A DNA stretch of 64,000 nucleotides from Bilabrum cf. latius (GCA_965178125.1 OZ237748.1:372001-436000), one strand, 5' to 3'. Shown: positions 1-63,258, counted from the stretch's first letter. The notes: a model not told the origin generated them from the sequence alone. A program made the numbers and translations.

Positions 1-530
1 GGCCTGCAGGGACATCAACAACAACGTGAGTTTGTTCAACTGCATTGCAATAGCTCCTGAGTTTCACATACCAAGCATGCTATCCTAGGTATCAACGGAC
101 ACTCCCACGCACGAATCCATCCCCAAATCATTCCCCCCGCTACCTTGCCTCCTCACCTTTGTCCTTGTCTCCCCCTTCCTTGATCGAGCAGAATGGCAGG
201 ACTCCCGTGGAGATGGCAGCTTAGTGCCGCTGCCTCGAAACCGCTGCCGCCATTCGGTCATTCATTCCATCTCGAGTCCGAAGGGCCATGTGCTGGAGGC
301 GGGCAGTGGAGGCCAAGAGGGACGCATCAATGGTATTCAGGGCAGCGAGCACTGGCAGGCCCATGGAGCTTGAAAAGAGGCTGAGGCTGGGCAAGCTGGC
401 TGGTGGGTTGGCGATCAAGGGAATAGCGATACATGGCAGTAGGAGCTCTATGCTGGTGCTTCCACTGGAGGCAGCCAGGCTGGGAGGGCACGACGAGTGC
501 GTGAAGCTGCTGCAGGAGGCCTAGGCATGA
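1..530 (+). CDS. 3' end of ankyrin-repeat gene copy 0 (partial)
   Basis: End of exon D at 1-25 (GTGAG donor at 26). Terminal exon E 192-530: NGRTPVEMAA[TAG]CRCLETAAAIRSF...LPLEAARLGGHDECVKLLQEA[TAG]A-TGA. Homologous to the terminal exons of copies 2-6. Confidence 0.8.
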
Positions 531-1305
531 GGTCTAGGCTGGCGATAGTGTTGGCCAGCAAGCAAGTCTAGGCGTTCGACGCGATCGGATGGAAGAAGCC
601 CCCCTTGTTGCCAGTCCCAGAGGAAGGCATCTGAGCGCCCTGCCGGCTCGGGGGGCTGCGGGAGCGACGGCCTGGCACGGCCTGCCAGGGCCGCAGGGAC
701 CCGTTCGGCGCGAAACTCCACACTTCTTCGCCCGTTTGGGGGTGCCCCTGCAATTCGTGTGATAAATTTGCAATTGAACAACATGCTTCGGTCACGCGCA
801 TGCGGCTGCAGCCGCTGGGGCGGCCTGCAGACGGCCGCGAGCGCGTTTGGACGGGCTAGCTAGAGAGGCTCCTTGCGCCCGAACCAGCGCCATCCAGCGT
901 CTCACACGAGTACAATCGAAAGGACATAGCATAAAGAGCAATATATCAAAAATCTGCCATGGAGGCCATAGGAGAAAAAATGTGCCGGGCCCGCAGATTT
1001 CGGCTGCAGTGGGCGAGACAGCCGCGCCGCCGGCAAATTTTCTGCAGCCGATCAAATCCCGGTGCAGTCGACGCATACATTCACAAAGAATAAGGTAGGA
1101 GCATTTTATCTCGAAGATTTTCTCCCCGCCCGCTCACAGAGGCCCAGACGTGATCCGGGCGCCCCGCCGGCCGCGCGCGCGGCCAAATCAGGTTCCGCTC
1201 ACGCTAGACTGGCGCGCGGCGCTACCGATCCGGCAGCCCAGGGGTCTTTTCTGCATCTTCCAACCTGCTTGGAAGGAATTGATCTCATTGTGATATCAGT
1301 TTGAG

Positions 1306-4300
1306 ATGTAAGATGGTTTGTGATTATGTTTGATTACCGTTACAACTTGTTGAAGCTGATACCGCTTTGTAGCAGCTGTTGTTACAGTGTTGTATCCTGG
1401 CTACCAATGGTGCGTTGCGATGTCCTCATGGATTCGATCCATATGAGTCTGCTTGACGCTACACATAAAATTTCTACGTCCATCGTCATACTACACAGGG
1501 GAGATACACTTCGAACAGCAGCCAAGTATGGCAACGTGGACGCCCTGAGGGCTTGCCTGGATTCGGGAACGGACATCGAATCCAAAGATAGCGTGAGATT
1601 GAGCTCTACTGGTCGGGCTTTTGGATTCCTTTTTGGGTTGATATACGTGTGTAGACGAGAAGGTCCACGCACAGGCTGTTTCGGAGCTCGAGAGTGATGG
1701 GAAGAAGATCCACCATTGGAGACCTGTTGCACGCCATCGATTCATCAGCGAACTAGATTAGGGGGGGGCTTCTAGGAAACTGATTTCAAACAGTTGCACT
1801 ACTGCTTTCTGTACATGACCGTGGTATGCACCTCTAGTTTTGCGTGCTCTCCGCGCCTGGCCATCAGCGGATCCTCACCCCCAGCCACCAGGTTGCTCCC
1901 TTCCCTCGGGGTCTGCTTGCCATCCACGGCTACCTACCTACGGTTTAGTCTTTCTTTCATGCATTGCAGAGTGGTAGGACAGCAGCATGGTGGGCTGCAT
2001 ACCATGGCGAGGCGGCTGGCCTGTAGTTGCTCATCGAGAGGGGCGCCAACGTGAACGCTGCCATGCTTGTGAGAAAAGAGGTTGCCTACTCAACAGGGCG
2101 GGTTGTAGGCGATACCTGGGATTTTTGATTTGGCTTGGGAGTTCATTAAACTGTATGTATCCATTGAAAAGGCTAGTATATCATCTGTCTGGCTCCTCGT
2201 CGATCGAGTCGGGCCCCCGGGGCTAGTGCTTCCCTCTGACTGACTAGGTCTCAAGAGAAGGCGCGGTTTGTTCCTGCTGTCGCGTGGATGCGGTCGATTG
2301 TATCTAAGCATTATCTCACCATGCATGTCTTCTAGTATTGGTGCTTAGTGTGGCCATCGCTAAGCCCCGGCCGGCTGGCCCACATGGCTCCCGTGCTTGG
2401 TGCGGCAGGTGAGTGGCGGCTTGCGGGATATGGTTGCACTTGGATTGTGTCTGGGTTTTCAAATCGAATGCAAATTGCTTGGTCGCATTAGTGTATTAAC
2501 TGTATTGCAAATTGGCCGTTGATCGATGACAGCTCCCCGGGGGAGGAAGGGCCTGGCCTGTGTGACGGGCATTCAGATCGATCCTCATTGCCTGGCTTGC
2601 GCCTCCGATAGGCGGAGTTCAACGAGTTTGCACTGATCAGTACATACATAGTATGACATATATGTGATTCATTTGAGTCATTTGTCTTTCAGGACCTGTA
2701 CAGCCGGCGAGGCGGCCGCCGCCCGTCCCCCCAGAGGGCCCCTCGGCTATCTCATCCCACATGCGGATTCAGAGGCTGGGACCGGTCCCTGTCGTGATGG
2801 AATGGCTTGAAAGGAAGACATATGCATGTTTGGATTGGTTTGGCTTCCAGTGAGTTTGTCCCTCGAGCGGGAATCGATCCGGAGACTGCGCCCCTAGGGC
2901 CCAGAGCGACTCCCACCGGTCCGTGCCATAGCACCACCCACACCCCCAACACCCGCCCCCATGCCCACACACATCCACACCAACACACACCCCAAGCACA
3001 TCCCCTGCCCCCTCACCCCCTGTCTCCCATTCCCCTACCGCAGGGTGGCGACACACCCGTTCATAGGGCATCCGGGAGCGGGCACAAGGACTGTCTTCGA
3101 ATGCTTGTTAAGAATGGGGGGGACGTGAATGCGGTGAACAAAGTGAGATAGATAAACATATGTTGACGGAGAGGTTGGTATTGTGTGTCTGTGCTTGTGT
3201 GTTGGATGGGTGTCCGTGTCTGTCTGTCTTGGGATTACCCGCTCCCGGGTCCGAGACCCGCTGGCAGGGGTCCTTCGCGGTGCTCCCGCTGCGTTGATGG
3301 TTTGGGGCTTGACACTTGTGCGCGTATCTCGGGCTGTAGGTATGGTATGGTATCATGGTTTGGACCCATCGGCTCGATTTAGGCACCGTAACCCTGCGAT
3401 TGGATTCGACTCCAGATCCGAATGGTCGCATCGGATGAGGCGGGGGAGTCATATTCATCCGAGTTGATTCTCCTGCTGTGGTTGCTCGTCAGAACCGTGG
3501 CCGTCCATGAGCATGTGCTAGTCGATGAATTGATGCTGGATGCCTTATTTGGATTTGATGTATGGTTTTTCTGATAAATCGAACTTGTTTGGGCCGGGTC
3601 GATGCTGCAATTGATGCTTGACGGGCCTTGGACTGTGTGTCTGAACGGCTCTGTCCGGTTCGTTCTGGCGAAGCTTCGCAGCCCGTTTCGATCGGGATCT
3701 ATCACTGCGAGATTGTTTCGTCTTGGTCTACAGTCCTCGCTACGATGCTTGGCTCTCAGGGCGGTGGCGTATTGCCACCTTTGTAGACACGCGTGTGTCT
3801 AGTGACCGACCTGGCTCTATCTCCAGGTCATGTGCTAGTGGTCGGGCAGCCCTGGTATGGGCTGCCGAGTCACCATGCCTCACGGCTCTGCCAAGACTTG
3901 GATTGTCTTGGCGAAGCGGTTACAACCGCTAATAGCGCGGAGCAACAGCCCTGTATCGATTCACTGCCAGTCAGTGCTTGCCCAAGGGGGAAGGTGGGCG
4001 GGTAAAATGTGATGAGTTACGAATGAAAAGACTGGCGATGGGATGCGATAGTAGGCACTGCTGAAGTAGCGCGGCAGTGGTAGTAACTGCGGGGATGGTG
4101 GGTGGGTTCAAAACAACAAGCAGTGGGAATCACCTCCTCTGGAGTTGCCCCTGCCTGTCTTCCCAGTGTGTATTGCCACATAATGACAATTATTACTGAG
4201 AATATCGGGGCACAGCTGTAGAACACAGGTGCCACCGAAATTCCGAACAAGTGAGAGCCTCACATCTGCGCTCGGACTTGCGACCAATACTACACAATCT

Positions 4301-7300
4301 CTCCGATCTAAATCACTTCGTAACGTGCCTCCGTACCTACGGCACACAACTGACGGGATCTATCACTGCGAGATTGTTTCGTCTTGGTCTACAGTCCTCG
4401 CTACGATGCTTGGCTCTCAGGGCGGTGGCGTATTGCCACCTTTGTAGACACGCGTGTGTCTAGTGACCGACCTGGCTCTATCTCCAGGTCATGTGCTAGT
4501 GGTCGGGCAGCCCTGGTATGGGCTGCCGAGTCACCATGCCTCACGGCTCTGCCAAGACTTGGATTGTCTTGGCGAAGCGGTTACAACCGCTAATAGCGCG
4601 GAGCAACAGCCCTGTATCGATTCACTGCCAGTCAGTGCTTGCCCCGCCGTTACCCACATGCGGGGTATTGCACTGACGTGGTATTGCCCTTTGCCGTATG
4701 TAATGCCACGTCGAAAGCGTGTGTATGGCCAGGTATCAAAGTGAACTCCCAGTGCTGTGCACGGCCACTCAATGCATTGGTAGGTAAACCGATGCAAAGT
4801 TGTGTCACGAAATCCCAAGCTGTATTCCGAAATGCTACTTCTTCCCTCCATCCAAAACGATTGCATTCAAACTCCCAAAACGATTGCACTCAAACCTAGA
4901 AGAACTTCTCATTCAAACTCCCAATATGAATCTCCCACAATCGTCTAGGATGGCATAGACTATTGCAAAACCTGTATCACTACGAAATGTCCATTAAACT
5001 ATAGACACTAACCAACAAAACTCCCATAATAACAAAGACCAGATGGTCAACGCCAATTGCAGATCTTGGCCAATGCCACAATGCCAGGGCCAACAACACG
5101 ATGGTGGCCCCGCGTAAGTGGCGAAGCACACCACGGACGGCGCTGCCGCGATCAACTGCATATCCGAAGCCCTTACGTGGGCAGGATTCAGCTCGGGCAG
5201 ATGCGATCATGCCCAAGCTAATTGAACCATGGCGGCCAAGAGCAAGTGGATAAGCATACCACGAAAGGCGCTGCCACGAGCAACTGTATATCCGAAGCCC
5301 TTACGTGGGCAGGAATCAGCTTGGTCAAATGCGATCATGCCCAGGCCAATTGAGCGATGCCGGACAAGAGGAAGCGGTTAAGCACACCACGGACATCGCT
5401 GCCACAAACAACTACTTATCCGTAGCCCATATGCGGGCAGGGAGCAGCTCGAGCAAGTGCGAGCACGACCGGGCCAACTCACAGAGGGCGGCCCAGAGCA
5501 AGTGCCGAAGCACACCACGAACATCGCTGCCACGAGCAACTGTATTGCCGAAGCCCAAACGTGGGCAGGGAGCAGCTCGGGCAGATGCGACAATGTTCAG
5601 GCCAACTGAGCTATGGCAGCCCAGACCAAAAGCCGAAGCACACCACTGACGGCGCTGCTACGAGCAACTGCATATCCGAAGCCCTTACGTGGGCAGGATG
5701 CAGCTCGGGCAGATGCGATCATGCCCAAGCTAATTGAGCCATGACGGCCAAGAGCAAGTGGATAAGCACACCACGAAAGGCGCTGCCACGAGCAACTGTA
5801 TATCCGAAGCCCTTACGTGGGCCGGGAGCAGCTCGGGCTAATGCGACCATGTCCAGGCCAACTGAGCCATGGCGGCCAAGAGCAAGTGCCGAAGCACACC
5901 ACGAAAGGCGCTGCCACGAGTAAATGCATCTCTGAAGCCCTTACGTAGACAGGAATCAGCTTGGTCAAATGCGATCATGCCCAGGCCAATTGAGCGATGC
6001 CGGACAAGAGGAAGCGGTTAAGCACACCACGGACATCGCTGCCACAAGACACTGTATATCCGAAGCCCAGACGTGGGCAGGGAGCAGCTTGGGCAGATGC
6101 GACAATGTTCAGGCCAACTGAGCTATGGCAGCCCAGAGCAAGTGCCGAAGCACACCACGGACGGCGCTGCCGCGATCAACTGCAAATCCGAAGCCCTTAC
6201 GTGGGCAGGATTCAGCTCGGGCAGATGCGATCATGCCCAAGCTAATTGAGCCATGACGGCCAAGAGCAAGTGGATAAGCACACCACGAAAGGCGCTGCCA
6301 CGAGCAACTGTATTTTCGAAGCCCTTACGTGGGCCGGGAGCAGCTCGGGCTATTGCGACCATGTCCAGGCCAACTGAGTGATGGCGGCCAAGAGCAAGTG
6401 GATAAGCATACCACGAAAGGCGCTGCCACGAGCAACTGTATATCCGAAGCCCTTACGTGGGCAGGAATCAGCTTGGTCAAATGCGATCATGCCCAGGCCA
6501 ATTGAGCGATGTCGGACAAGAGGAAGCGGTTAAGCACACCACGGACATCGCTGCCACAAACAACTACTTATCCGTAGCCCATATGCGGGCAGGGAGCCGC
6601 TCGAGCAAGTGCGAGCACGACCGGGCCAACTCACAGAGGGCGGCCCAGAGCAAGTGCCGAAGCACACCACGAACGTCGCAGTCATAAGACACTGTATATC
6701 CGAAGCCCAGACGTGGGCAGCGAGCAGCTCGGGCAGATGCGACTATGTTCAAGCCAACTACGCAATGGTGGCCGCGAGCAAGTGCCGAAGCACACCAGGG
6801 ACGTCGCTGCTACGAGCAACTGCATATCCGAAGCCCATTATGGACAAGGAGCAGCTCGGGCAAGTGCGACCATGTCCAATCAGAATGACCGATGGCGGCA
6901 GCGAGCAGGAGGCGAAGCACACCAGGGACGTCGCTGCCACGAGCAACTGCATATTTAAAGCCCATTCATGGGCAAGGAGCAGCTCGGGCAAGTGCGACCA
7001 TGTCCAATCAGAATGACCGATGGCGGCCGCGAGCAGGAGGCGAAGCACACCAGGGACGTCGCTGCCACGAGCAACTGCATATTTAAAGCCCATTCATGGC
7101 CAAGGAGCAGCTCGGGCAAGTGCGACCATGTCCAATCAGAATGACCGATGGCGGCCGCGAGCAGGAGGCGAAGCACACCAGGGACGTCGCTGCCACGAGC
7201 AACTGCATATTTAAAGCCCATTCATGGGCAAGGAGCAGCTCGGGCAAGTGCGACCATGTCCAATCAGAATGACCGATGGCGGCCGCGAGCAGGAGGCGAA

Positions 7301-10300
7301 GCACACCAGGGACGTCGCTGCCACGAGCAACTGCATATTTAAAGCCCATTCATGGCCAAGGAGCAGCTCGGGCAAGTGCGACCATGTCCAATCAGAATGA
7401 CCGATGGCAGCCGCGAGCAGGAGGCGAAGCACACCAGGGACGTCGCTGCCACGAGCAACTGCATATTTAAAGCCCATTCATGGCCAAGGAGCAGCTCGGG
7501 CAAGTGCGACCATGTCCAATCAAAATGACCGATGGCGGCCGCGAGCAGGAGGCGAAGCACACCAGGGACGTCACTGCCACGAGCAACTGCATATTTAAAG
7601 CCCATTCATGGACAAGGAGCAGCTCGGGCAAGTGCGACCATGGCCAATCAGAATGACCGATGGCGGCCCGGAGCAAGAGGCCAGGCACACCAGGGACGTC
7701 GCTGCCACGAGCAACTGCATATTCGAAGCCCATTCATGGGCAAGGAGCAGCTCGGGCAAGTGCGACCATGTCCAGGCCGACGGCGCGATGGCGGCCCGGA
7801 GCAAGAGGCCAGGCACACCAGGGACGTCGCTGCCACGAGCAACTGCATATTTAAAGCCCATTCATGGGCAAGGAGCAGCTCGTGCAATTGCGACCATATC
7901 CAAGCCGAGTAACCGATGGCGGCCCAGAGCAAGAGGCCAGGCACACCAGGGACGTCGCTGCCACGAGCAACTGCATATCCGAAGCCCATTCATGGGCAAG
8001 GAGCAGCTCGGGCAATTGCGACCATGTCCAATCAGAATGACCGATGGCGGCCGCGAGCAGGAGGCGAAGCACACCAGGGACGTCGCTGCCACGAGCAACT
8101 GCATATTTAAAGCCCATTCATGGGCAAGGAGCAGCTCGGGCAATTGCGACCATGTCCAATCAGAATGACCGATGGCGGCCGCGAGCAGGAGGCGAAGCAC
8201 ACCAGGGACGTCGCTGCCACGAGCAACTGCATATTTAAAGCCCATTCATGGGCAAGGAGCAGCTCGGGCAAGTGCGACCATGTCCAGGCCGACGGCGCAA
8301 TGGCGGCCCAGAGCAAGTGCCGAAGCACACCAGGGACGTCGCTGCCACGAGCAACTGCATATTTAAAGCCCATTCATGGGCAAGGAGCAGTTCGGGCAAG
8401 TGCGACCATGTCCAGGCCGACGGCGCGATGGCGGCCCAGAGCAAGAGGCCAGGCACACCAGGGACGTCGCTGCCACGAGCAACTGCATATTTAAAGCCCA
8501 TTCATGGGCAAGGAGCAGCTCGGGCAAGTGCGACCATGTCCAGGCCGACGGCGCGATGGCGGCCCAGAGCAAGTGCCGAAGCACACCAGGGACGTCGCTG
8601 CCACGAGCAACTGCATATCCGAAGCCCATTCATGGGCAAGGAGCAGCTCGGGCAATTGCGACCATGTCCAGGCCGACGGCGCGATGGCGGCCCAGAGCAA
8701 GAGGCCAGGCACACCAGGGACGTCGCTGCCACGAGCAACTGCATATCCGAAGCCCATTCATGGGCAAGGAGCAGCTCGGGCAATTGCGACCATGTCCAAG
8801 CCGACTGAACGATGGCGGGCCCGAGTAAGAGGCCAGGCACAGCACGGACGTCGCTGCCACAAGTAACTGCATATCCGAAGTCCGTACGTGGGCAAGGAGC
8901 TGGTCGGGCAAATGCGACCATGGCAACCTGTAGCGAAGCCCGGACGAACTGGAGCAATTTGAATGCGAAGGCAGCTGCAAACACTAGATGGAGGCTACGG
9001 AAAAAGGTACACATTTATAGAACATGCCTGCTATTGTCGCAAGATGCGAACAGGTCAAGCCGCCGTGATATGGCGGACTGTGCGATGTACGGCGCTACCT
9101 GGCGGCGGCGGGAGCACATCGATGTAGATAGGGCACAGCTCCCTAAAGCGTGTTGTGAGGCCATTAGTAATAGACAAAATGTCTAGATGAACCTCCCCAG
9201 CAGCTCACGCTGTCGAATTGTGCAGGCTCTGATGAGGGCAGAACGCGCAAGAGGTGGGCAAATTCGAAGTGCCCCTGTTGTCGCCGAGATAGGAAGACGG
9301 CGGCAAGCACGGATTTATCAGTCTGGCCAATGAGAGCTAGTATAGCTGACTGTGGAAGTGAACCACATGTAGTATTGTGTACGCCTGAGGCGGAAGCGAT
9401 CCGCAGCTGCACACGAGGACCAGAATCGTCTCTCGGTGTCAGGGTTGAGGCCCTACAAGCCCTCAGGGAATCATGATAATAGCCAGAACCGTCGGTGGCT
9501 AGGAAAGGGAGTCTCGTGGAGTACGGCCAAGCAAACTAGAAGCCGCGAAAATAGACAGCAGCTGTGGGCTGAAAATTTTGGCCGGTTGAACGGTACATAA
9601 GACAGGCTGCTATGAGCTCATTCAGAGAAACGGAAAAAGCACCGTCAATAATAACAGGCAGTGCTGCCAAGACCATGATCCCTTGGAACCGGGTTCCCAA
9701 AGGAGCTGTGCCGATCAAACGGTGCAGTTTCCACCAACACACGGGCAGAGACTGGCTCGACGAGCGAGACCAGCTAATCATACCCATAGAAATGCAAAAT
9801 CACTCATGCACAGCGGACATCAGGACTGGCAGGGCTCCAAAATGGCATGCGACCACGTCCTGGCATCGAATCCATGATCGGCAGTAGGAGGCCACGGGGC
9901 CAACTACAAGATCACGTGCCATGGCGTCTGACGAAGCAGGCTCCAATGACAATCGAATGCAATATGTACCAAATCTATGCAATCTGTGCAGCTGGTCCGA
10001 ACGGGCTCCCTAAGCGGGCATGCGAACGGAAACCGGCTGTGCAAATCCGAGGTGTTCACCAATTCACGGGCAAAGGCTGGCTCGACGAGCGAGACCAGCT
10101 AATCATACCCATAGAAATGCAAAATCACTCATGCACAGCGGACATCAGGACTGGCAGGGCTCCAAAATGGCATGCGACCACGTCCTGGCATCGAATCCAT
10201 GATCGGCAGTAGGAGGCCACGGGGCCAACTACAAGATCACGTGCCATGGCGTCTGACGAAGCAGGCTCCAATGACAATCGAATGCAATATGTACCAAATC

Positions 10301-15195: not shown

Positions 15196-15285
15196 TGGGA
15201 GCTGGTGGAGGCGATGAGGAGGTTCGGGCAAGGAGAGTGATGGGAGCTGGTGGAGGCGATAAGGAGGTTCGGGCAAGGAGAGTGA
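15155..15285 (+). repeat. 45-bp triplication of the kinase gene's stop-containing end
   Basis: GGAGAGTGA ends at 15195, 15240 and 15285. Confidence 0.92.
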
Positions 15286-15763
15286 TGACCGCTTGTGGAG
15301 CTGATGGGGGGCTTTTCCTTCGTCGCCGAGCTGCAGAAATGGAGGCTACTGGAAAAGGGGGCCTGATGTGTTTGGTCATGAAATTTGAAATTGGGGCCGG
15401 AGCTTGTCTTGAAATGGCAGCTCGGGCCACTGCTTGCTTGCTGTAACTGACTGTATAAAGATAAATCCAAATGGATCAAGTTGACTGCATCATTGGTGCA
15501 TCGCCCAATGTTTGTTGTCAAAGCAAATATGTGCAAACAACACCCTTCGATTATGATGGCTACCATACTAATATAGTAATCAAACTTATTGATACAATAA
15601 AAACGACAGTTTCATCTACATGGACCGCGGCAAAAGCCCAGACGTGATCCGGGCGCCTGACCGGACGTGCGCGGCGCCAAAATAAGTTCCGCACACACAA
15701 ATATGGTCGGCTGCTGCAACCGCTTCCTGGAAGGCACTAGTCCGATTGTTATATCAGTTTGAG

Positions 15764-32100: not shown

Positions 32101-32831
32101 CTGCCGCACCAGGCCGACCACATCGGTGGAATATGTCTTGCATGGATTTAATCTCTGAAAGATCGGTCAGCCGGGCCGTTGCCTGAGATAATCAATGTTA
32201 TCTAATGACCTTTCAGAACCCTCCGATTCACCCGCAGGATGGAGACACTCCCCTCCATGATGCAGCGTACTGGGGCTACACCGCCTGCGCCACCATCCTC
32301 ATGGAGGCAGGAGCCCGCAGGGACATCAAGAACAACGTGAGTTTGTACAGATGCATCGCATTAGCTCTGGATTCCCCAATGTCCATCACTCTGCCAGATG
32401 AATCGAAGGACACTCCCACCCAAGAATCCCCCCCCCGTGCATCTTTGACCCCATGAACCCTCCTCTCTCCGTCGCTTTCTTTGATCCAGCAGAGAGGCGA
32501 GACTCCCACTGAAGTGGCAGACTCAAGGGGCAAGTCTAAAACCGCTGCCACGATTCGCTCGTTCATCCCCCATCAAGTCCGAATAATGATTCGTTGGAGG
32601 CGGGCAGTGGAGGCCAATAGGGATGCTGGGATGGTGTTCCAGGCAGCGAATGAAGGCAGGCCAATGGAGCTGGCCAGGAGGCTGAGGTTGGGCAAGCTAG
32701 CAGGGGGGTTGGAGATGAAGGGAACTGTGACATTTGATAGTGGCACTTCTGGGCTGGTGCTTCCACTGGAGGCAGCCAGGCTGGGTGGGCACGACGATTG
32801 CGTGAAGCTGCTGCAGGAGGCCTAGGGATGA
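29118..32831 (+). CDS. Ankyrin-repeat protein, copy 4
   Basis: Exons 29118-29119, 29311-29404, 29784-29882, 30867-30965, 32238-32336, 32493-32831. Confidence 0.82.
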
Positions 32832-36721: not shown

Positions 36722-36865
36722 GCCTGCCACGTAGCCTGCGCGAAGTGCAACTGACCAATACGCACAAAAAAAATCATCCAATTAAAAAACAAAGGGCACC
36801 AATGAGTTTATCTACTTAATTACAAACTAACGTTGCATAAATTTATACTCGTAATATCCTCCTTA

Positions 36866-50200: not shown

Positions 50201-53200
50201 TTACAAATGAAAAGACTGGCGATGGGATGCGATAGTAGGCACTGCTGCAGTGGCGCGGCAGTGGTAGTAACTGCGGGGATGGTGGGTGGGTTCAAAACAA
50301 CAAGCAGCGGGAATCACCTCCTCTGGAGTTGCCCCTGCCTGTCTTCCCAGTGTGTATTGCCACATAGTGACAATTATTACTGAGAATATCGGGGCACAGC
50401 TGTAGAACACAGGTGCCACCGAAATTCCGAACAAGTGAGAGCCTCACATCTGCGCTCGGACTTGCGACCAATACTACACAATCTCTCCGATCTAAATCAC
50501 TTCGTAACGTGCCTCCGTACCTACGGCACACAACTGACGGGATCTATCACTGCGAGATTGTTTCGTCATGGTCTACAGTCCTCGCTACGATGCTTGGCTC
50601 TCAGGGCGGTGGCGTATTGCCACCTTTGTAGACACGCGTGTGTCTAGTGACCGACCTGGCTCTATCTCCAGGTCATGTGCTAGTGGTCGGGCAGCCCTGG
50701 TATGGGCTGCCGAGTCACCATGCCTCACGGCTCTGCCAAGACTTGGATTGTCTTGGCGAAGCGGTTACAACCGCTAACAGCGCGGAGCAACAGCCCTGTA
50801 TCGATTCACTGCCAGTCAGTGCTTGCCCCGCCGTTACCCACATGCGGGGTATTGCACTGACGTGGTATTGCCCTTTGCCGTATGTAATGCCACGTCGAAA
50901 GCGCGTGTATGGTCAGGTATCAAAGTGAACTCCCAGTGCTGTGCACGGCCACTCAATGCATTGGTAGGTAAACCGATGCAAAGGTGTGTCACGAAATCCC
51001 AAGCTGTATTCCCAAATGCTACTTCTTCCCTCCATCCAAAACGATTGCACTCAAACCCAGACGAACTCCTCAGTCAAACTCCCAAAATGAAACTCCCACA
51101 ATCGTCTAGGATGGCAACGACTATTGCAAAACCTGAATTACTACGAAATGCCCATTAAACTATAGACATTAACCAACCAAACTCCCAGAATAACAAGGAC
51201 CAGATGGTCAACGCCTATTGCAGATCTGGACCAATGCCACAATGCCAGGGCCAACAACACGATGGCGGCCCCGCGTAAGTGGCAAATAGTACCACGGACG
51301 TCGCTGCCACGAGCAACTACTAATCAGAAGCCCATTCGTGGGCGTGGAGCAGCTCGGGCTAATGCGACTATGTCCAGGCCCATTGAGCGATGGCGGACCA
51401 GGGCACGTGGCGAAGCACACCACGAACGGCGCTACCACGAGCAACTGCATATCCGAAGCCCAGATGCGGGCGAGGAGCAGCTAGAGCAAGTGCGCGCACG
51501 ACCGGGCCAACGGAGCGATGGCGGACCAGAGCAAGTGCCGAAGCACAACACGGACATCGCTGCCACGAGCAAATGTACATCCGAAGCCACTTCGTGGGCA
51601 GGGATCAGCTCGGGCAGATGCGATCATGCCCAGGCCAACTGAGCGATGGCGGCCCAAAGCAAGAGCCGAAGCACACCACGGAGGCATTGCTGCCACGAGC
51701 AAATGTATATCCGAAACACATTCGTTGGCAGGGAGCAGCTCGGGCTAATACGACTTTGTTCAGACCAACTGAGCGATGGCGGACCAGGGCACGTGGCGAG
51801 GCACACCACGACGTCGCTGCCACGAGCAACTACTGCGAAGCTAGTATGCGGGCGTGGAGCAGTTTGAGCAAGTGCGAGCACGACCGGGCCAACAAACGGA
51901 GGGCGGCCCAAATCAAGTGCCGAAGCACAACACGGAGACATTGCCGCCACGAGCAACTGTATATCCGAAGCCGATACGTGGGCAGGAATTAGCTCGGGCA
52001 GATGCGACCACGGTAGAGCCAACTCACAGAGGGCGACCCAGAGCAAGAGCCGAAGCACACCACGGACGGCGCTGCCGTGAGCAACTGCTGCGAAGCTATT
52101 ATGCGGGCGTGGAGCAGCTCGGGCAGATGCGAGCACGACCGGGCCAACTCACAGAGGGCGGCCCAGAGCAAGTGCCGAAGCACACTACGAACGTCGCTGC
52201 CACGAGCAAATGTATATACGGAGCCCATATGCGCGCAGGGACTAGCTCGGGCAGATGCGAGCACGGTAGAGCCAACTCACAGAGGGCGGCCCAGAGCAAG
52301 AGCCGAAGCACACCACGGACGGCGCTGCCGTGAGCAACTGCTGCGAAGCCCATATGCGGGCGAGGAGCAGCTAGAGCAAGTGCGAGCACGACCGGGCCAA
52401 CTCACAGAGGGCGGCCCAGAGCAAGTGCCGAAGCACACCGAAGACATCGCTGCCAGGAGCAACTGCAAATTCGAAGCCCCTACGTGGGCAGGGACTAGCT
52501 CGGGCGAATGCGACCATGTCCAGGCCAAGTCAGCGATGGCGGCCCAGAGCAAGAGCCGAAGCACACCACGGACGGCGCTGCCGTGAGCAACTACTGCGAA
52601 GCCCATATGCGGGCGAGGAGCAGCTAGAGCAAGTGCGAGCACGACCGGGCCAACTCACAGAGGGTGGCGCAGAGCAAGTGCCGAAGCGCACCAAAGACAT
52701 CGCTGCCACGAGCAAATGTATATCCGAAGCCCAGACGTGGGCAGGGACTAGCTCGGGCGAATGCGACCATGTCCAGGCCAAGTCAGCGATGGCGGCCCAG
52801 AGCAAGAGCCGAAGCACACCACGGACGGCGCTGCCGTGAGCAACTACTGCGAAGCCCATATGCGGGCGAGGAGCAGCTAGAGCAAGTGCGAGCACGACCG
52901 GGCCAACTCACAGAGGGTGGCGCAGAGCAAGTGCCGAAGCGCACCAAAGACATCGCTGCCACGAGCAAATGTATATCCGAAGCCCAGACGTGGGCAGGGA
53001 CTAGCTCGGGCGAATGCGACCATGTCCAGGCCAAGTCAGCGATGGCGGCCCAGAGCAAGAGCCGAAGCACACCACGGACGGCGCTGCCGTGAGCAACTAC
53101 TGCGAAGCCCATATGCGGGCGAGGAGCAGCTAGAGCAAGTGCGAGCACGACCGGGCCAACTCACAGAGGGTGGCGCAGAGCAAGTGCCGAAGCGCACCAA

Positions 53201-56200
53201 AGACATCGCTGCCACGAGCAAATGTATATCCGAAGCCCAGACGTGGGCAGGGACTAGCTCGGGCGAATGCGACCATGTCCAGGCCAAGTCAGCGATGGCG
53301 GCCCAGAGCAAGAGCCGAAGCACACCACGGACGGCGCTGCCGTGAGCAACTACTGCGAAGCCCATATGCGGGCGAGGAGCAGCTAGAGCAAGTGCGAGCA
53401 CGACCGGGCCAACTCACAGAGGGCGGCCCAGAGCAAGTGCCGGAGCGAACCGAAGACATAGCTGCCACGAGCAACTGTATATCCGAAGCCCATATGCGGG
53501 CAGGGACTAGCTCGGGCAGATGCGAGCACGGTAGCGCCAACTCACAGAGGGCGGCCCAGAGCAAGAGCCGAAGCACACCGAAGACATCGCTGCCACGAGC
53601 AACTGCAAATTCGAAGCCCCTACGTGGGCAGGGACTAGCTCGGGCGAATGCGACCATGTCCAGGCCAAGTCAGCGATGGCGGCCCAGAGCAAGAGCCGAA
53701 GCACACCACGGACGGCGCTGCCGTGAGCAACTACTGCGAAGCCCATATGCGGGCGAGGAGCAGCTAGAGCAAGTGCGAGCACGACCGGGCCAACTCACAG
53801 AGGGTGGCGCAGAGCAAGTGCCGAAGCGCACCGAAGACATCGCTGCCACGAGCAAATGTATATCCGAAGCCCAGACGTGGGCAGGGATCAACTCGGGCAA
53901 ATGCGAGAACGGTAGAGCCAACTCACAGAGGGCGGCCCAGAACAAGAGCCGAAGCACGCTCAGAGCAAGAGCCGAAGCACACCACGGACGGCGCTGCCAC
54001 GAGCAACTGCTGTAAAGCCCATATGCGGGCGAGGAGCAGCTAGAGCAAGTGCGAGCACGACCGGGCCAACTCACAGAGGGCGGCCCAGAGCAAGTGCCGA
54101 AGCACACCACGAACGGCGCTACCGTGGGCAACTGCTGCGAAGCCCAAATGCGGGCGTGGAGCAGCTAGAGCAAGTGCGAGCACGACCGGGCCAACTCACA
54201 GAGGGTGGCGCAGAGCAAGTGCCGAAGCGCACCGAAGACATCGCTGCCACGAGCAAATGTATATCCGAAGCCCAGACGTGGGCAGGGATCAGCTCGGGCA
54301 GATGCGAGAACGGTAGAGCTAACTCACAGAGGGCGGCCCAGAGCAAGAGCCGAAGCACACCACGGACGGCGCTGCCTTGAGCAACTACTGCGAAGCCCAT
54401 ATGCGGGCGTGGAGCAGCTAGAGCAAGTGCGAGCACGACCGGGCCAACTCACAGAGGGCGGCCCAGAGCAAGTGCCGAAGCACACACCGGACGGCGCTGC
54501 CGTGAGCAACTACTGCGAAGCCCATATGCGGGCGTGGAGCAGCTCGAGCAAGTGCGAGCACGACCGGGCCAACTTACAGAGGGCGGCCCAGAGCAAGTGC
54601 CGAAGCACACCACGAACGGCGCTGCCGTGAGCAACTGCAAATTCGAAGCCCCTACGTGGGCAGGAATTAGCTCGGGCGAATGCGACCATGTCCAGGCCAA
54701 GTCAGCGATGGCGGCCCAGAGCAAGAGCCGAAGCACACCACGGACGGCGCTGCCGTGAGCAACTACTGCGAAGCCCATATGCGGGCGAGGAGCAGCTCTA
54801 GCAAGTGCGAGCACGACCGGGCCAACTCACAGAGGGCGGCCCAGAGCAAGTGCCGAAGCACACCACGGACGGCGCTGCCGTGAGCAACTGCAAATTCGAA
54901 GCCCCTACGTGGGCAGGGAGCAGCTCGGGCGAATGCGACCATGTCCAGGCCAAGTCAGCGATGGCGGCCCAGAGCAAGAGCCGAAGCACACCACGGACGG
55001 CGCTGCCGTGAGCAACTACTGCGAAGCCCATATGCGGGCGAGGAGCAGCTCTAGCAAGTGCGAGCACGACCGGGCCAACTCACAGAGGGTGGCGCAGAGC
55101 AAGAGCCGAAGCACACCACGGACGGCGCTGCCGTGAGCAACTACTGCGAAGCCCATATGCGGGCGTGGAGCAGCTCTAGCAAGTGCGAGCACGACCGGGC
55201 CAACTCACAGAGGGCGGCCCAAATCAAGTGCCGAAGCACACCGAAGACATCGCTGCCACGAGCAAATGTATATCCGAAGCCCAGACGTGGGCAGGGATCA
55301 GCTCGGGCAAATGCGACCATGCCCAGGCCAAGTCAGCGATGGCGGCCCAGAGCAAGAGCCGAAGCACACCACGGACGGCGCTGCCGTGAGCAACTACTGC
55401 GAAGCCCATATGCGGGCGAGGAGCAGCTCTAGCAAGTGCGAGCACGACAGGGCCAACTCACAGAGGGTGGCGCAGAGCAAGAGCCGAAGCATACCATTGA
55501 CGGCGCTGCCGTGAGCAACTACTGCGAAGCCCATATGCGGGCGTGGAGCAGCTCTAGCAAGTGCGAGCACGACCGGGCCAACTCACAGAGGGCGGCCCAG
55601 AGCAAGAGCCGAAGCACACCACGGACGGGGCTGCCGTGAGCAACTACTGCAGAGCCCATATGCGGGCGTGGAGCAGCTCGAGCAAGTGCGAGCACGACCG
55701 GGCCAACTCACAGAGGGCGGCCCAGAGCAAGTGCCGAAGCACACCACGAACGGCGCTACCGTGGGCAACTGCTGCGAAGCCCATATGCGGGCGTGGAGCA
55801 GCTCTAGCAAGTGCGAGCACGACCGGGCCAACTCACAGAGGGCGGCCCAGAGCAAGTGCCGAAGCACACCGAAGACATCGCTGCCACGAGCAAATGTATA
55901 TTTGAAGCCCAGACGTGGGCAGGGATCAGCTCGGGCAAATGCGACCATGCCCAGGCCAAGTCAGCGATGGCGGCACAGAGCAAGAGCCGAAGCACACCAC
56001 GGACGGCGCTGCCGTGAGCAACTACTGCGAAGCCCATATGCGGGCGAAGAGCAGCTAGAGCAAGTGCGAGCACGACCGGGCCAACTCACAGAGGGCGGCC
56101 CAGAGCAAGTGCCGAAGCACACCACGAACGGCGCTACCGTGGGCAACTGCTGCGAAGCCCATATGCGGGCGTGGAGCAGCTCTAGCAAGTGCGAGCACGA

Positions 56201-59200
56201 CCGGGCCAACTCACAGAGGGTGGCGCAGAGCAAGTGCCGAAGCACACCGAAGACATCGCTGCCACGAGCAAATGTATATTTGAAGCCCAGACGTGGGCAG
56301 GGATCAGCTCGGGCAAATGCGACCATGCCCAGGCCAAGTCAGCGATGGCGGCACAGAGCAAGAGCCGAAGCACACCACGGACGGCGCTGCCGTGAGTAAC
56401 TACTGCGAAGCCCATATGCGGGCGAAGAGCAGCTAGAGCAAGTGCGAGCACGACCGGGCCAACTCACAGAGGGCGGCCCAGAGCAAGTGCCGAAGCACAC
56501 CACGAACGGCGCTACCGTGGGCAACTGCTGCGAAGCCCATATGCGGGCGTGGAGCAGCTCTAGCAAGTGCGAGCACGACCGGGCCAAATCACAGAGGGTG
56601 GCGCAGAGCAAGTGCCGAAGCACACCGAAGACATCGCTGCCACGAGCAAATTATCTGAAGCCCCTACGTGGGCAGGGATCAGCTCGGGCAATTGCGAATA
56701 TTTTCGGGCCAAGTCAGCGATGGCGGACAAGAGGAAGCGGTTAAGCAAACCCCGGACGGCGCTGCCACGAGCAACTGCATCTCCGAAGCCCCTTCGTGGG
56801 CAGGGATCAGATCGGGCAAATGCGACCATGGCCAGGCCAACTGAGCGACGGCAGCCTAGAGCAAGTGGTTTAGTACACCACGGACGGCGCTTCCACGAGC
56901 AACTGCAACTTCGAAGCCCCTACGTGGGCAGGAATTAGCTCGGGCAATTGCGAATATTTTCGGGCCAAGTCAGCGATGGCGCACAAGAGGAAGCGGTTAA
57001 GCACACCACGGACGGCGCTGCCATGAGCAACTACATCTCCGTAGCCCAGACGTGGGCAGGGATCAGCTCGGGCAAATGCGATCATGGCCAGGCCAACTGA
57101 GCCATAGCGGACAAGAGCAAGTGCCGAAGCACACCGAAGACGGCGCTGCCACGAGGATCTTTTGAGCGATGCTTCTTCATCCGCTTCACCAGAGATGATG
57201 ATAATTTAGCGGCAGTATCGGGGAATGAGCATAGGCAAAACTCAACAGCCCCAACGAATTCGGGATCAACCATGTCGACCTGAGTCAGTGACGTCGCGAC
57301 CGTGACGTCGCGACCACAGATATGCTCTGATTTAGCTTGTAGTGAGTACTTTTAACATTGTGACGAAAGTACGATGACAAGGTGCTGGCAGCGACGACGA
57401 TAGCCGCCCTAAAGTCCACCCAGCAAACACTATCCAGCATGGAATTATTTATATCACGTCATGCAAATTGTGCATCAAGACAGCGAAGGCACCGCAGAGG
57501 TGGCAACGCCAGTCTTGGCTGGAAATCTCCCCAGCGCCACAAGCGAAGATGCTTGGACACATGGAGAGAGCAGAACACATCAAGAGTACCTGCAACTCCA
57601 AGCAAATGTAAAACAATCATGCAATCCGTGCAACAGGTGTGAACAGCCCGACCTAGAGTCGAGGTGATCAACCTCCTGCCGCGTGCCGCTTGAGACAGCC
57701 AAGAACAACAGTCCCGGCAGCGACTACAATAGCCGCACAGTCCACCAAGCAAACACTATCCAGCATGGAATTATTTATATCACGTCATGCAAATCGTGCA
57801 TCAAGACAGCGAAGGCACCGCAGAGGTGGCAACGCCAGTCTTGGCTGGAAATCTCCCCAGCGCCACAAGCGAAGATGCTTGAGCACATGGAGAGAGCAGA
57901 ACACATCAAGTGTACCTGCAACTCCAAGCAAATGCAAAACAATCATGCAATCCGTGCAACAGGTGTGAACAGCCCGACCTAGAGTCGAGGTGATCAACCT
58001 CCTGCCGCGTGCCGCTTGAGACAGCCAAGAACAACAGTCCCGGCAGCGACTACAATAGCCGCACAGTCCACCTTGCAAACACTATCCAGCATGGAATTAT
58101 TTATATCACGTCATGCAAAATGTGCATCAAGACAGCGAAGGCACCGGAGTGGGTGCAACGCTAGACTTGGCTTGAAATCTCCCCAGAGCTCAAGCGAAGG
58201 TGCCTGAACACATGGAGAGAGCAGAACACATCAAGTGCACCGGCAACTCCAAGCAAATGCAAAACAATCATGCAATCCGTGCAACAGGTGTGAACAGCCC
58301 GACCTGGAGTCGAGGTGATCGCGCTCCTGCTGCATGCTGCTACTTGCATGGCAAAACCCGAAACGAAATGTCCGGTGGGCAGGGCGCTAAGTTTGTCGAG
58401 ACGACAACAAGCACAACTGCCCGGCCAAAGTAGCAAGCACTATCCAGCATGGAATTATTTATATCACGTCATGCAAATCGTGCATCAAGACAGCGAAGGC
58501 ACCGCAGAGGTGGCAACGCCAGTCTTGGCTGGAAATCTCCCCAGCGCCACAAGCGAAGATGCTTGAGCACATGGAGAGAGCAGAACACATCAAGTGTACC
58601 TGCAACTCCAAGCAAATGCAAAACAATCAAGCAATCCGTGCAACAGGTGTGAACAGCCCGACCTGGAGTCGAGGTGATCGCGCTCCTGCTGCATGCTGCT
58701 ACTTGCATGGCAAAACCCGAAACGAAATGTCCGGTGGGCAGGGCGCTAAGTTTGTCGAGACGACAACAAGCACGACTGCCCGTCCAAAGTAGCAAGCACT
58801 ATCCAGCATGGAATATTCCGTGCAACATGTGTGAACAGCCCGACCTAGAGTCGAGGTGAGCAACCTCCCGCCGCGTGCCGCTTGAGACAGCCAAGAACAA
58901 CAGTCCCGGCAGCGACTACAATAGCCGCACAGTCCACCAAGCAAACACTATCCAGCATGGAATTATTTATATCACGTCATGCAAATTGTGCATCAAGACA
59001 GCGAAGGCACCGCAGAGGTGGCAACGCCAGTCTTGGCTGGAAATCTCCCCAGCGCCACAAGCGAAGATGCTTGAGCACATGGAGAGAGCAGAACACATCA
59101 AGTGTACCTGCAACTCCAAGCAAATGCAAAACAATCAAGCAATCCGTGCAACAGGTGTGAACAGCCCGACCTAGAGTCGAGGTGAGCAACCTCCTGCCGC

Positions 59201-62200
59201 GTGCCGCTTGAGACAGCCAAGAACAACAGTCCCGGCAGCGACTACAATAGCCGCACAGTCCACCAAGCAAACACTATCCAGCATGGAATTATTTATATCA
59301 CGTCATGCAAAATGTGCATCAAGACAGCGAAGGCACCGCAGAGGTGGCAACGCCAGTCTTGGCTGGAAATCTCCCCAGCGCCACAAGCGAAGATGCTTGG
59401 ACACATGGAGAGAGCAGAACACATCAAGTGTACCTGCAACTCCAAGCAAATGCAAAACAAACATGCAATCCGTGCAACAGGTGTGAACAGCCCGACCTAG
59501 AGTCGAGGTGAGCAACCTCCTGCCGCGTGCCGCTTGAGACAGCCAAGAACAACAGTCCCGGCAGCGACTACAATAGCCGCACAGTCCACCAAGCAAACAC
59601 TATCCAGCATGGAATTATTTATATCACGTCATGCAAAATGTGCATCAAGACAGCGAAGGCACCGCAGAGGTGGCAACGCCAGTCTTGGCTGGAAATCTCC
59701 CCGGCGTCACAAGCGAAGATGCTTGAGCACATGGAGAGAGCAGAACACATCAAGTGTACCTGCAACTCCAAGCAAATGCAAAACAATCATGCAATCCGTG
59801 CAACAGGTGTGAACAGCCCGACCTAGAGTCGAGGTGATCAACCTCCTGCCGCGTGCCGCTTGAGACAGCCAAGAACAACAGTCCCGGCAGCGACTACAAT
59901 AGCCGCACAGTCCACCAAGCAAACACTATCCAGCATGGAATTATTTATATCACGTCATGCAAATTGTGCATCAAGACAGCGAAGGCACCGCAGAGGTGGC
60001 AACGCCAGTCTTGGCTGGAAATCTCCCCAGCGCCACAAGCGAAGATGCTTGAGCACATGGAGAGAGCAGAACACATCAAGTGTACCTGCAACTCCAAGCA
60101 AATGCAAAACAATCATGCAATCCGTGCAACAGGTGTGAACAGCCCGACCTAGAGTCGAGGTGATCAACCTCCTGCCGCGTGCCGCTTGAGACAGCCAAGA
60201 ACAACAGTCCCGGCAGCGACTACAATAGCCGCACAGTCCACCAAGCAAACACTATCCAGCATGGAATTATTTATATCACGTCATGCAAATTGTGCATCAA
60301 GACAGCGAAGGCACCGCAGAGGTGGCAACGCCAGTCTTGGCTGGAAATCTCCCCAGCGCCACAAGCGAAGATGCTTGAGCACATGGAGAGAGCAGAACAC
60401 ATCAAGTGTACCTGCAACTCCAAGCAAATGCAAAACAATCATGCAATCCGTGCAACGGGTGTGAACAGCCCGACCTAGAGTCGAGGTGATCATCCTCCCG
60501 CTGGACCAGTTCAAAACAACAAGCAGCGGGAATCACCTCCTCTGGAGTTGCCCCTGCCTGTCTTCCCAGTGTGTATTGCCACATAGTGACAATTATTACT
60601 GAGAATATCGGGGCACAACTGTAGAACACAGGTGCCACCGAAATTCCGAACAAGTGAGAGCCTCACATCTGCGCTCGGACTTGCGACCAATACTACACAA
60701 TCTCTCCGATCTAAATCACTTCGTAACGTGCCTCCGTACCTACGGCACACAACTGACGGATGCAACTGCACTCGCCTGGCCAAGCCTTGACTGGTGCTCG
60801 ATGGTCCTTTCCGTTCTCAAGCGGAGAGCGTTTGGCTCAATTCGCGGGTTTGATTGTTTTCATTGTTGTTTAATTCATCCTTTTTGCATGTTGTTGGAGG
60901 CGGGGGGTCATATCCAGCCGAGTAGATCCTCCTGCTGTGATTCCTTGCGAGAACAGTGGCCGTCCATGAGCGTTTGCTCGGCGACGAAGCGATGCCTGAT
61001 GCATGATTTGGATTTATTATTTGGCGAGTATGTTGAATCGAACCTGCTTGGGCCAGATCGATGGTGCAATTGATCTATGGCGGGCCTTGGAATGTATGTC
61101 TGAACGGCTCTGTCTGGTTCGTTCTGGCGAAGCATCGCTGGCATCGGATCAAACGAGATCGGGATTTTGGACTGCTTTGCCAGTGGAAATTAATCAGTTT
61201 GGCTTGTTTTTGTATTTATCTGTATCAAAATGCTTGGAGTGCGTATAGCTTGCCGCTTGTGTTGATTCTCTAGGATTGTCCGCGATGGCAGGGCTCGCTT
61301 GGCATGCATGAGTCGCTGGCATATAGAGATGTGACATGAGTATCTGCTTGGACGTGATACAGAAGCATATGATCAATTGTGTGTGTGGCTGTATCCCTGA
61401 TGCAACTGGATGCTCTGTGTATAGTATCCTGCCTTCAGCGTGGCACCTGAACTGTCTGTGGCAGCAGCCCATCTCGATCGGTATTGGCTGGTCTTGAGCA
61501 GCAATGGTTTCATTGTAATGTAAGTGTATATGGCATTGCACTTATGCATGTGGATTGCTTGGATTGTAATCAATGAGCTGCACAGCTGGCTAGGCGGCCG
61601 CTGCCCGTCCCCCCAGAGGGCCCCTCGGCTATCTCGGCCGCCAGGCGGATTCAGAGGCCGGGACCGGTCCCTGTCGCGATGCAATGGCTTGATAGGATGA
61701 TTAGTATATGTTTGGATTGGTTTTGATTTTAATGATTTTGGCCCTCGAGCGGGAATCGACCCGAGGAGTGCGCCCCTGGGGCCCAGAGCGACCCTCACCG
61801 GTCCGTCCCAACGCCCCCCGCACACCCCCATCACCCGCCCCATGCCCACACACATCCACACCCACACCCACCCCACGCACACCCCCTGCTGCCCCCCCAC
61901 CCCCTGTTTCCCATCCCCCCACCGCAGAATGGCTCCACACCCGTTCATTGGGCATCCTGGAATGGGTACGATGACTGTCTTCGATTGCTGCTTGAAAATG
62001 GGGGGGATGTGCATGCGGTGAACAAGGTGAGAGAGAGAAACAAATGTTGAGGAAGAGGTTGGTCTTGTGTGTGTCTGTGCTTGTGTGTTGGATGGGTGTG
62101 TGTGTCTGTCCGGCTTGGGATTGACCACTCCCGGGTCCGAGACCCGCTGGCAGGTTACTTCGCGGTGCTCCCGCTACGTTGACGGATTGGGCCTGGACGC

Positions 62201-63258
62201 TAGTGCGTGTATCTCGGGCTGTAGGCATACTGTGCTATCATGGTTTGGTTCCATGGGCGTGATTCGGGAGGTGTAATCCTTTGCTTGGATTTGACTCCGG
62301 ATCTGAATGGTCGCATCGTGTTCGTGGAGCTTGCTTATAGCGCAACTGGATGCTGTGTAAAAAGTCTGCATTCGTTCGAGCACAGCACCTAAGCTCTGTG
62401 GGTTTGGTACAATGTACATTCTTTGAATATGGTACCGGCGCATGTGGCTTGGTTGGCTTGTCGTTAGTGGTGATTTCGCAGTGCACCTTGCGCTACATCT
62501 CGGTCGTCGGATCGCTTCCGGACCGCTGCCACACCAGGCCAAGCAAATCGGGGGAATATGTATTTCATGGATTCAAGCTCTGAAATATCTATCGATTTGC
62601 CGGGCAATTGTTACAGATTTTCCATGTTGACTCATGACCTTTTAGAACCCTCCGATTCACCCGCAGGATGGAAAAACTCCCCTCCATGATGCAGCGTACT
62701 GGGGCTACACCGCCTGCGCCACCATCCTCATGGAGGCAGGAGCCCGCAGGGACATCAAGAACATAGTGAGCTTGTCGAACTGCATCGTAATAGCTCTGGA
62801 TTTCCGAATATCCAACAAGCTATCCTAAGGATCAAAGGACTCTCCCACCCACGAATCCCCCCCGTGCATCGCCGACACCCTGACCCCTCCAACCCCTTTT
62901 GACTTCCTTGATCGAGCAGGCTGGCAGGACTCCTGTTCAGCAGGCACACGCCTTTGGTAGGACGGAAACCGCTACAGCCATCCAATCGTTCATCCCTGCT
63001 CGACTCCGTGCACCCCTATGCTGGAGGAGGGCAGTGGACGCCAAGAGGGATGCATCGATGGTGTTCAGGGCAGCGAGTGAGGGCAGGCCACTGGAGCTGG
63101 CCAGGAGGCTGAGGCTAGGCAAGCTGGCCGGTGGGTTGGATATCAAGGGAATAGCGATACATGGCAGTGGGAGCTCTAGGCTGGTGCTTCCACTGAAGGC
63201 AGCTAGGTTGGGTGGGCACGACGATTGCGTGAAGCTGCTGCAGTAGGCCTAGGGATGA
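47235..63258 (+). CDS. Ankyrin-repeat protein, copy 6 (two C-type exons separated by an 11-kb insertion)
   Basis: Exons 47235-47236, 47413-47506, 47883-47981, 49372-49470, 61928-62026, 62667-62765, 62920-63258. Ends LLQ[TAG]A[TAG]G-TGA. Confidence 0.78.
48019..48425. mobile_element. Short hairpin-led insertion, family 1 (longest, unique distal part)
   Basis: Precisely interrupts gggtt|gtaggcgatac. No TSD. Confidence 0.75.
51250..57155. repeat. 125/128-bp satellite with 253- and 378-bp higher-order repeats
   Basis: Homologous to the 5090-8925 satellite. ORF periods 253 (52277, 52530, 52783, 53036) and 378 (55583, 55961, 56339). Confidence 0.92.
57390..60495. repeat. 326-bp tandem array (about 9-10 units, with 359-bp variants at about 58100-58800)
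   Basis: ORF periods 326 (58875, 59201, 59527, 59853, 60179) and 359 (58200, 58559). Confidence 0.92.

Follow-up and report, generated by a model that had tools for sequence, protein, structure and literature searches.

The window analysed here is a stretch of 64,000 nucleotides (nt) from Bilabrum cf. latius (GCA_965178125.1 OZ237748.1:372001-436000), and all coordinates given below are positions in it. It is eukaryotic, has a G+C content of about 0.55 and is filled almost completely by a head-to-tail array of ankyrin-repeat (ANK) genes on the plus strand, which is the subject of this work. The array is made up of six complete units (U1-U6) and a partial unit (U0) at the left edge, in agreement with an earlier inspection of the same DNA (the sequence-only reading) that had counted at least seven tandem paralogs. 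The next spacer begins at the right window edge, after 63339. When U4 was compared with the window by blastn, whole units were 72-88% identical, introns and spacers included. According to the predicted gene plan, each gene has a non-coding exon 1, an exon A for the N-terminal cap repeat (N-cap), three or four symmetric exons carrying one internal repeat each (B, C, in some units a second C exon called C', and D) and a last exon with a D' repeat, a linker and the E cap. The units are positioned as follows:

183..524, plus strand: partial unit U0, last exon (D' repeat, linker and E cap); in-frame TAG 222-224 at repeat position 11; terminus TAG-GCA-TGA
1297..3142, plus strand: U1, 5' part; exon 1 end 1307 (..GAGAT/GT); A 1499-1592; B 1970-2068 with TAG 2024-2026; C 3044-3142
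12226..15195, plus strand: U1, 3' part; D 12226-12324; D' from about 12481, in frame into a coiled coil (42-base-pair (bp) repeat 12646-12986) and then a kinase; TGA 15193-15195
15755..21720, plus strand: U2; exon 1 end 15765; A 15946-16039; B 16415-16513 with TAG 16469-16471; C 17490-17588; D 19482-19580; last exon 19734-20066
22947..28769, plus strand: U3; exon 1 end 22957; A 23134-23227; B 23605-23706 (102 nt) with TAG 23659-23661; C 24685-24783; C' 25947-26045; D 27279-27377; last exon 27534-27854
29109..33685, plus strand: U4; exon 1 end 29119; A 29311-29404; B 29784-29882 with TCG (Ser) 29838-29840; C 30867-30965; D 32238-32336; last exon 32493-32825
40311..45975, plus strand: U5; exon 1 end 40321; A 40489-40582; B 40962-41060 with TAG 41016-41018; C 42159-42257; C' 44069-44167; D 45381-45479 with TAG 45414-45416 at repeat position 12; last exon 45643-45975
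47226..63358, plus strand: U6; exon 1 end 47236; A 47413-47506; B 47883-47981 with TAG 47937-47939; C 49372-49470; C' 61928-62026; D 62667-62765; last exon 62920-63252 with GAG>TAG at 63244-63246

AG and GT border the B, C and D exons in 21 out of 21 cases (6 B, 9 C and 6 D), and all of these exons are in phase 0. Twenty of them are exactly 99 nt long, the B exon of U3 having reached 102 nt by a 3-nt insertion. The earlier description of repeats on separate 99-nt phase-0 exons is thus correct for B, C and D; it does not extend to exon A, which is 94 nt long, nor to E, which is the end of the last exon. Exon A starts with a G after a CAG acceptor and the upstream non-coding exon ends in the A and T of ATG, so that the start codon is split by an intron. 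The donor motif CAGTTTGAGAT followed directly by GTRAG is present some 190 nt before every A exon (6 found versus 0 expected). D', linker and E form a single last exon with an open frame of about 110 codons (in U1 the frame runs into the kinase instead), comprising three degenerate repeats, the final one being the C-terminal cap (C-cap). Joined by coordinates, the predicted exon chains are in frame (length divisible by three) in all six complete units. Because the 99-nt exons are symmetric, gain, loss or skipping of an exon leaves the frame intact.

The predicted ANK-only products have about 241-274 amino acids and 7-8 repeats, U4 being the one with 241. The three single exons tested against the Pfam Ank profile (PF00023), B of U4, C of U6 and D of U4, all score above its cut-off of 21.1 bits (31.6-35.9 bits, E 1.7e-7 to 7e-9), and the D exon within the long open reading frame (ORF) of U1 scores 27.7 bits. 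Besides Ank and, in U1, Pkinase, Pfam gave nothing in the array products, and the ANK-only models stop after the C-cap. No signal peptide, membrane segment, NB-ARC, NACHT or ROC-COR domain was found in the ANK-only proteins and no hydrophobic segment in the U4 model. The fold predicted for the last exon alone (pLDDT 77.7) has two ANK-like repeats at its end; the final 63 residues of this model superpose on ANK proteins (FEM1C, root-mean-square deviation 1.5 A) with a weak Foldseek E value of 0.03. All structural matches of the last exon are ANK proteins, the best of them being the substrate receptors FEM1B/C and ASB9, also weak (E 0.03-0.2). A protein search with a 40-residue B-exon query gave 10 generic ANK proteins with 41-63% identity, and no member of the array family was among these 10 matches. 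The C-terminal module of the array proteins (WRRAVEAKRD...GRPMEL...GGHDDCVKLL; e.g. 32595-32822) also forms the C-terminal end of four unnamed public proteins, with 50-65% identity; the front parts of these proteins are non-ankyrin and unrelated.

Two C exons are present in three of the six complete units (U3, U5 and U6). Judged by their flanks, C and C' of the same unit are nearest relatives (0.09-0.12), on the upstream side in U5 and U6 and on the downstream side in U3 and U6, which indicates that exon C was duplicated, or homogenised, inside units. Even so close, C and C' from one unit differ at the binding positions.

Splicing of these exons was followed in contigs of public sequencing runs X1-X4 aligned to 21721-32830, X4 being the best source of genomic DNA. 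The join 23706>24685 (B to C in U3) and the join 24783>25947 (C to C' in U3) are present in X1, X2 and X3, both as GT..AG introns with exactly the predicted borders. X1 has in addition the GT..AG join 23706>25947, in which C of U3 is skipped, and the join 32336>32493 (D to D' in U4); at the latter site X2 and X3 contigs have loose ends matching the end of D. None of these joins was found in the X4 contigs over 21721-32830. Between the D' acceptor (32493) and 32781 the contigs are continuous. An X3 contig reads GAGAT-G-GGAGAC, which is the junction of exon 1 with exon A, from a paralog outside the window. The spliced molecules expected by the sequence-only reading are therefore seen at the predicted borders in X1-X3, runs whose library type is unrecorded, and the exons are spliced as predicted whether these runs are RNA or hold processed copies. 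Many contigs have other residues at the variable positions; much of the signal thus comes from paralogs outside the window and the family is larger than the array.

Near-invariant scaffolds with variability at the groove positions used in DARPins (designed ankyrin repeat proteins) had also been proposed from the first inspection. All three scaffolds given there (LLIERGANVNAA, CLRLLLENGG and ILMEAGARRDIK) are present in the window, as are nine of nine quoted C-exon and six of six quoted B-exon peptides. For the selection analysis six exon positions were set a priori (1, 3, 11, 12, 31 and 33) from the DARPin design, these being the positions reportedly randomised by Binz and co-workers in 2003. 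When a C exon is aligned to DARPin repeats from the PDB the register agrees, and exon positions 3, 11 and 12 are sites at which those repeats differ from one another. The nonsynonymous divergence (dN) at the a-priori positions is 0.63 in B, 0.76 in C and 0.42 in D, as compared to a synonymous divergence (dS) of 0.19-0.25 in the remaining codons and to a flanking-intron divergence of 0.18-0.33. There is no such excess in the N-cap exon A (dN 0.24 versus dS 0.21), and dN/dS (omega) of the framework is 0.3-0.8. When minimum numbers of amino-acid changes are compared to the expectation from introns, the ratio in C is 3.18 (P=1.4e-6), and B, C and D pooled have 49 changes at the a-priori positions versus 26.2 expected (P=4.5e-5). 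These 49, out of 105 minimum amino-acid changes in total, are confined to six of the 33 positions of the repeat (permutation P=0.00065), as had been claimed for the DARPin groove. The most variable exon positions are 8, 33, 11, 3, 12, 1 and 32. Our results show that codons of the binding face, i.e. of the beta-turn and the first helix, evolve at about 2-4 times the rate of silent and intron sites while the framework is conserved, and they support a fixed scaffold with a variable candidate binding face.

The array resembles DARPins and consensus ANK designs (PDB 6mol, 5le2, 1n0r) in several respects: the 33-residue repeat is in register, the framework is fixed, N- and C-caps are present, and the natural variation occurs at exon positions 1, 3, 11, 12 and 33, where DARPin repeats differ. 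Differences are that the array is natural and not a library, that position 8 is highly variable here and a framework Leu in DARPins, and that binding by the array proteins is a prediction.

We interpret the array as a family that evolves by birth and death and encodes small, soluble ankyrin-repeat proteins whose binding groove is made to change rapidly, and we would give this interpretation a probability of roughly two in three. Whole units with their introns were duplicated in tandem, and exon C was duplicated again in three units. The proteins would be diversified cytosolic protein binders, the partners of which are probably fast-changing, for example pathogen, virus or transposon proteins. 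An immune role is a plausible hypothesis.

The LRR-ROCO and NB-ARC-TPR candidate receptor genes of Ectocarpus and other brown algae are the closest described systems (Zambounis et al. 2012, PMC3341825; Teng et al. 2024, PMC11378527). They share with the array one repeat per exon, adjacent symmetric exons of equal length, clustering, gene birth and death and exon duplication, and also diversifying selection on the ligand face and variable exon combinations in transcripts. Their exons are 72 nt (LRR) or 126 nt (TPR) long, as opposed to 99-nt ankyrin exons here; the array proteins lack ROC-COR and NB-ARC domains, are short with their 7-8 repeats and, save for one kinase fusion, consist of ANK repeats only. 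According to PMC3341825, exon shuffling is essentially confined to LRR and TPR loci, and its tabulation of a few other loci with repeated phase-0 exons might include ankyrin loci. Our literature search (ankyrin, exon shuffling, diversifying selection, brown algae) gave no ankyrin exon-per-repeat array among the matches listed. What is new is the intron-rich one-exon-per-repeat form of ANK genes with a kinase-fused member. Exon-per-repeat diversifying genes are the main argument for large receptor repertoires in some algae, LRR and TPR being the modules used; with an ankyrin version the same genomic trick would extend to a third repeat fold, and the array would supply small soluble proteins that are easily expressed and assayed for binding.

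The kinase fusion is in U1, where homology to the other units stops directly after the D' repeat. The frame continues for about 906 codons (>900) without a stop until TGA. This tail is intron-less and has 69% G+C, in contrast to the ANK exons, and it encodes a coiled coil followed by a protein kinase domain with HRDIKADN and DFG motifs. The coiled coil is rich in Gln, Lys and Asp and comes from the 42-bp tandem repeat at 12646-12986; a run of about 17 Glu is inserted after DFG (region 14100-14300). The Pfam Pkinase match has 33.9 bits against a cut-off of 31.7 and covers only profile positions 92-144. Among relatives of solved structure PINK1 matches best (E 8e-14 over about 120 residues), and there is a second weak stretch in the C-lobe; a near-length word search gave no homolog of the kinase ORF. 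ANK repeats and a kinase are joined in one chain also in the ankyrin-kinase fusions ILK and RIPK4/ANKK1. U1 differs from PINK1 and these fusions by the coiled coil between ANK and kinase, by the long acidic insert after DFG and in that no mitochondrial targeting or membrane part is seen. An enzymatic or output domain is present in U1 only, one out of six complete units. In U1 the predicted binding module is joined directly to a coiled coil and a PINK1-like kinase, and no other feature hints as concretely at a route from recognition to signal. The kinase fusion, like the transposon and the E-derived minisatellites described below, was absent from the sequence-only reading.

It is possible, and in our judgement somewhat doubtful, that the binder family is real and its arms race is not immunity. 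The proteins could be adaptors or regulators of a PINK1-like kinase or of ubiquitin ligases, could serve self/non-self recognition (mating, fusion), or could be engaged in conflict with transposons. The only enzymatic domain being PINK1-like points in this direction, as do the structural matches of the last exon to substrate receptors, the occurrence of the C-terminal module behind unrelated fronts in four other proteins, and the transposon within the array. Tandem clustering, birth-and-death and surface-directed diversification are, on the other hand, typical of candidate receptors (PMC3341825). The evidence from the array does not separate immune from other conflict.

Several observations weigh against a functional, rapidly diversifying family. 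In the conservative count most of the diversification signal comes from class C: the ratio in B is a modest 1.66 (P=0.043) and in D it is 1.04, not significant. The elevated dN/dS at variable sites that had been expected earlier is hence found in B, C and D when dN is set against dS and intron divergence, and is lost for D in the conservative count. The selection tests are counting methods, and pairwise dN/dS ignores the tree and recombination while the units are recombinant mosaics. Regarding the joins, X1-X3 are not on record as RNA, X1 is rated "probably DNA" and the joins could stem from processed copies; each side of a join spans only some 30 nt, and paralogs outside the window are the source of many contigs. 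Most seriously, under the standard code five of six complete units stop at codon 51, at a TAG in exon B, and U4 alone is without an internal stop. Additional TAGs are found in D of U5 and in D' of U0, at variable codons in both cases, and U6 has one close to its end at a Glu codon.

The TAG in exon B is at codon 19, which corresponds to a framework Glu position in consensus ANK designs; U4 has TCG there. Five of the six B exons carry it, and it was missed in the sequence-only reading, where the B-exon peptides, although all present, were quoted as separate halves. All eight premature stops in the ANK units are TAG, and there is no TAA, no TGA and no frameshift inside the coding frames of the six complete units. 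Together with nine in a transposase-like frame within the array the number of in-frame TAGs is 17, versus 0 TAA or TGA, while TAG makes up about one third of stop triplets window-wide. Every unit terminates with TAG-GGA/GCA-TGA, and the kinase and transposase frames end with TGA.

Coding sequence behind the TAGs looks constrained. For the last exon, omega is 0.37 (bootstrap 0.26-0.52) in the four units that bear a TAG and end in the E-type exon (U1, with its kinase end, was left out). The 12 framework codons behind the TAG in the five TAG-bearing B exons have 1 amino-acid change where the A-B intron predicts 9.4 (P=0.0008), while third positions of the same codons are near the neutral rate (2 changes versus 4.1). 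At the binding positions of these five exons there are 12 changes versus 4.7 expected (P=0.0035).

One explanation would be that UAG is efficiently read through or partly reassigned, so that the TAG-bearing ANK genes, the ANK-coiled-coil-kinase gene and the transposase are translated in full and the following TGAs are the real terminators. We put this forward tentatively, as a minority possibility; the kinase ORF has no TAG in its approximately 906 codons, which weighs against general reassignment. If this is true, the array would be a fully live repertoire and the first visible symptom of non-standard UAG reading in an intron-rich, GC-rich eukaryote.

The transposase-like frame (34118..36781, minus strand, behind the E minisatellite of U4) has 887 codons and is interrupted by nine TAGs only (counted over 867 codons), without TAA, TGA or frameshift before the TGA at its end. 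We take it to be hAT-like from the motifs DTRW and S..ERxFS and from its unnamed homologs, which are 25-36% identical; Pfam gave no match at E<=0.1 beyond chance-level ones and no match to a hAT profile or dimerisation domain, and the transposon showed no terminal inverted repeats. The segments between TAGs match separate ORF fragments in public protein data, and a homolog with 32% identity is open across four TAG sites. Residues of homologs at the five covered TAG sites are inconsistent (E/Q, L/A, N/R, G and D/N, at 25-36% identity). In the literature searched we found nothing relevant on in-frame UAG in algal transposases.

It is unlikely, in our estimate, that the array is mostly dead, with TAG an ordinary stop, five units being pseudogenes derived from one TCG>TAG mutation, only U4 making protein, and the selection patterns being relics or the result of gene conversion from live paralogs. 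Such a history would account for TAG at the identical codon in five of six B exons and for the additional TAGs in U0, U5 and U6. In the A-B intron U4 is 0.20-0.23 away from all other units, which are 0.10-0.19 apart, and U4 as the outgroup fits a single origin of the TAG. The mosaic structure of the units means that conversion occurs, and pS (the proportion of synonymous differences) directly behind the TAG is 0.084 as compared to 0.20 before it, which leaves room for a recent conversion tract. The avoidance of TAG in the kinase ORF suggests that it acts as a stop there. On the other side stand the lack of frameshifts, TAA and TGA in the six units, the intact splice dinucleotides of B, C and D, the low omega of the last exon, the constrained framework codons and the excess of change at the binding positions of the TAG-bearing B exons. 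As judged from these codon patterns, a simple dead-array reading does not fit.

Equally improbable in our view is that the family is functional and exon B is a poison or optional exon, either skipped in frame or entered through the TAG as an alternative 3' splice site (CCTGTAG/CTG, leaving 42 nt in frame), the TAG isoforms being regulatory or degraded. The symmetry of all internal exons would permit such skipping. The C-skipping join of U3 in X1 reflects variable exon choice or a difference between paralogs, and alternative use of repeat exons is described for ROCO LRR exons of brown algae (PMC11378527). However, the B to C joins in three runs mean that B is retained in processed molecules, and no A to C join and none at the TAG is among the 15 of 68 joins listed. 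The framework codons of B, also behind the TAG, look protein-constrained, and the nine TAG-only interruptions of the transposase would be left unexplained. We expect that the shared TAG of exon B is either bypassed, through read-through or exon skipping, or has only recently spread, for instance by conversion. The 17 TAGs and the selection downstream of them are a lead on stop-codon read-through or reassignment, or on an unusual spread of a null allele through a gene array.

Hypermutation of the type of repeat-induced point mutation was rejected as the source of the TAGs, TpA/ApT being 0.46-0.62 and (CpA+TpG)/(ApC+GpT) 1.4-1.5 in transposon and units.

Long frames with TAG read as sense (table 15) occur also outside the transposase. 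The antisense frames on the minus strand at 27296-28948, 45789-47534 and 21938-23323, which lie over 3' untranslated region (3'UTR) and spacer, contain neither TAA nor TGA and have 2-7 TAGs each. They were rejected as genes: their products would be Pro/Ser/Ala/Arg-rich and of low complexity, and we read them as a composition effect in the antisense of GC-rich sequence.

The remaining features of the window, no tRNA being found in it, are these:

5099..11689: satellites in the C-D intron of U1; 128-bp unit x30 (5099-8922) and 325-bp unit x6 (9732-11689)
19985-21720: minisatellite trailing U2, 86-bp unit x20
32748-33685: minisatellite trailing U4, 86-bp unit x11
38797-39862: orphan copy of E and 3'UTR, 3' of the transposon
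51291-57150 and 57387-60498 (whole block 51291-60498): satellites in the C-C' intron of U6, the same two as in U1
63170-63358: two 86-bp units trailing U6

Satellites of 128 bp and about 325 bp fill one intron in U1 and one in U6 and none in U2-U5, which suggests that the outer two units are related through a larger duplication. Each 86-bp minisatellite unit combines the final 60 nt of the reading frame with the stop and the start of the 3'UTR; as 86 cannot be divided by three, the copies do not lengthen the protein. A conserved stretch 3' of the last exon of U3, extending to about 28769, is read as 3'UTR. The orphan copy at 38797-39862 is probably the original 3' end of U4 that was moved away by insertion of the transposon. 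Between units, the intron sequence that lies some 150 to 25 nt before each B exon (e.g. 29634-29759) shows the same degree of conservation as the exon framework, with 0.2-0.4 minimum changes per column versus about 1.0 further out; it could have a role in regulation or splicing, or be a conversion tract.

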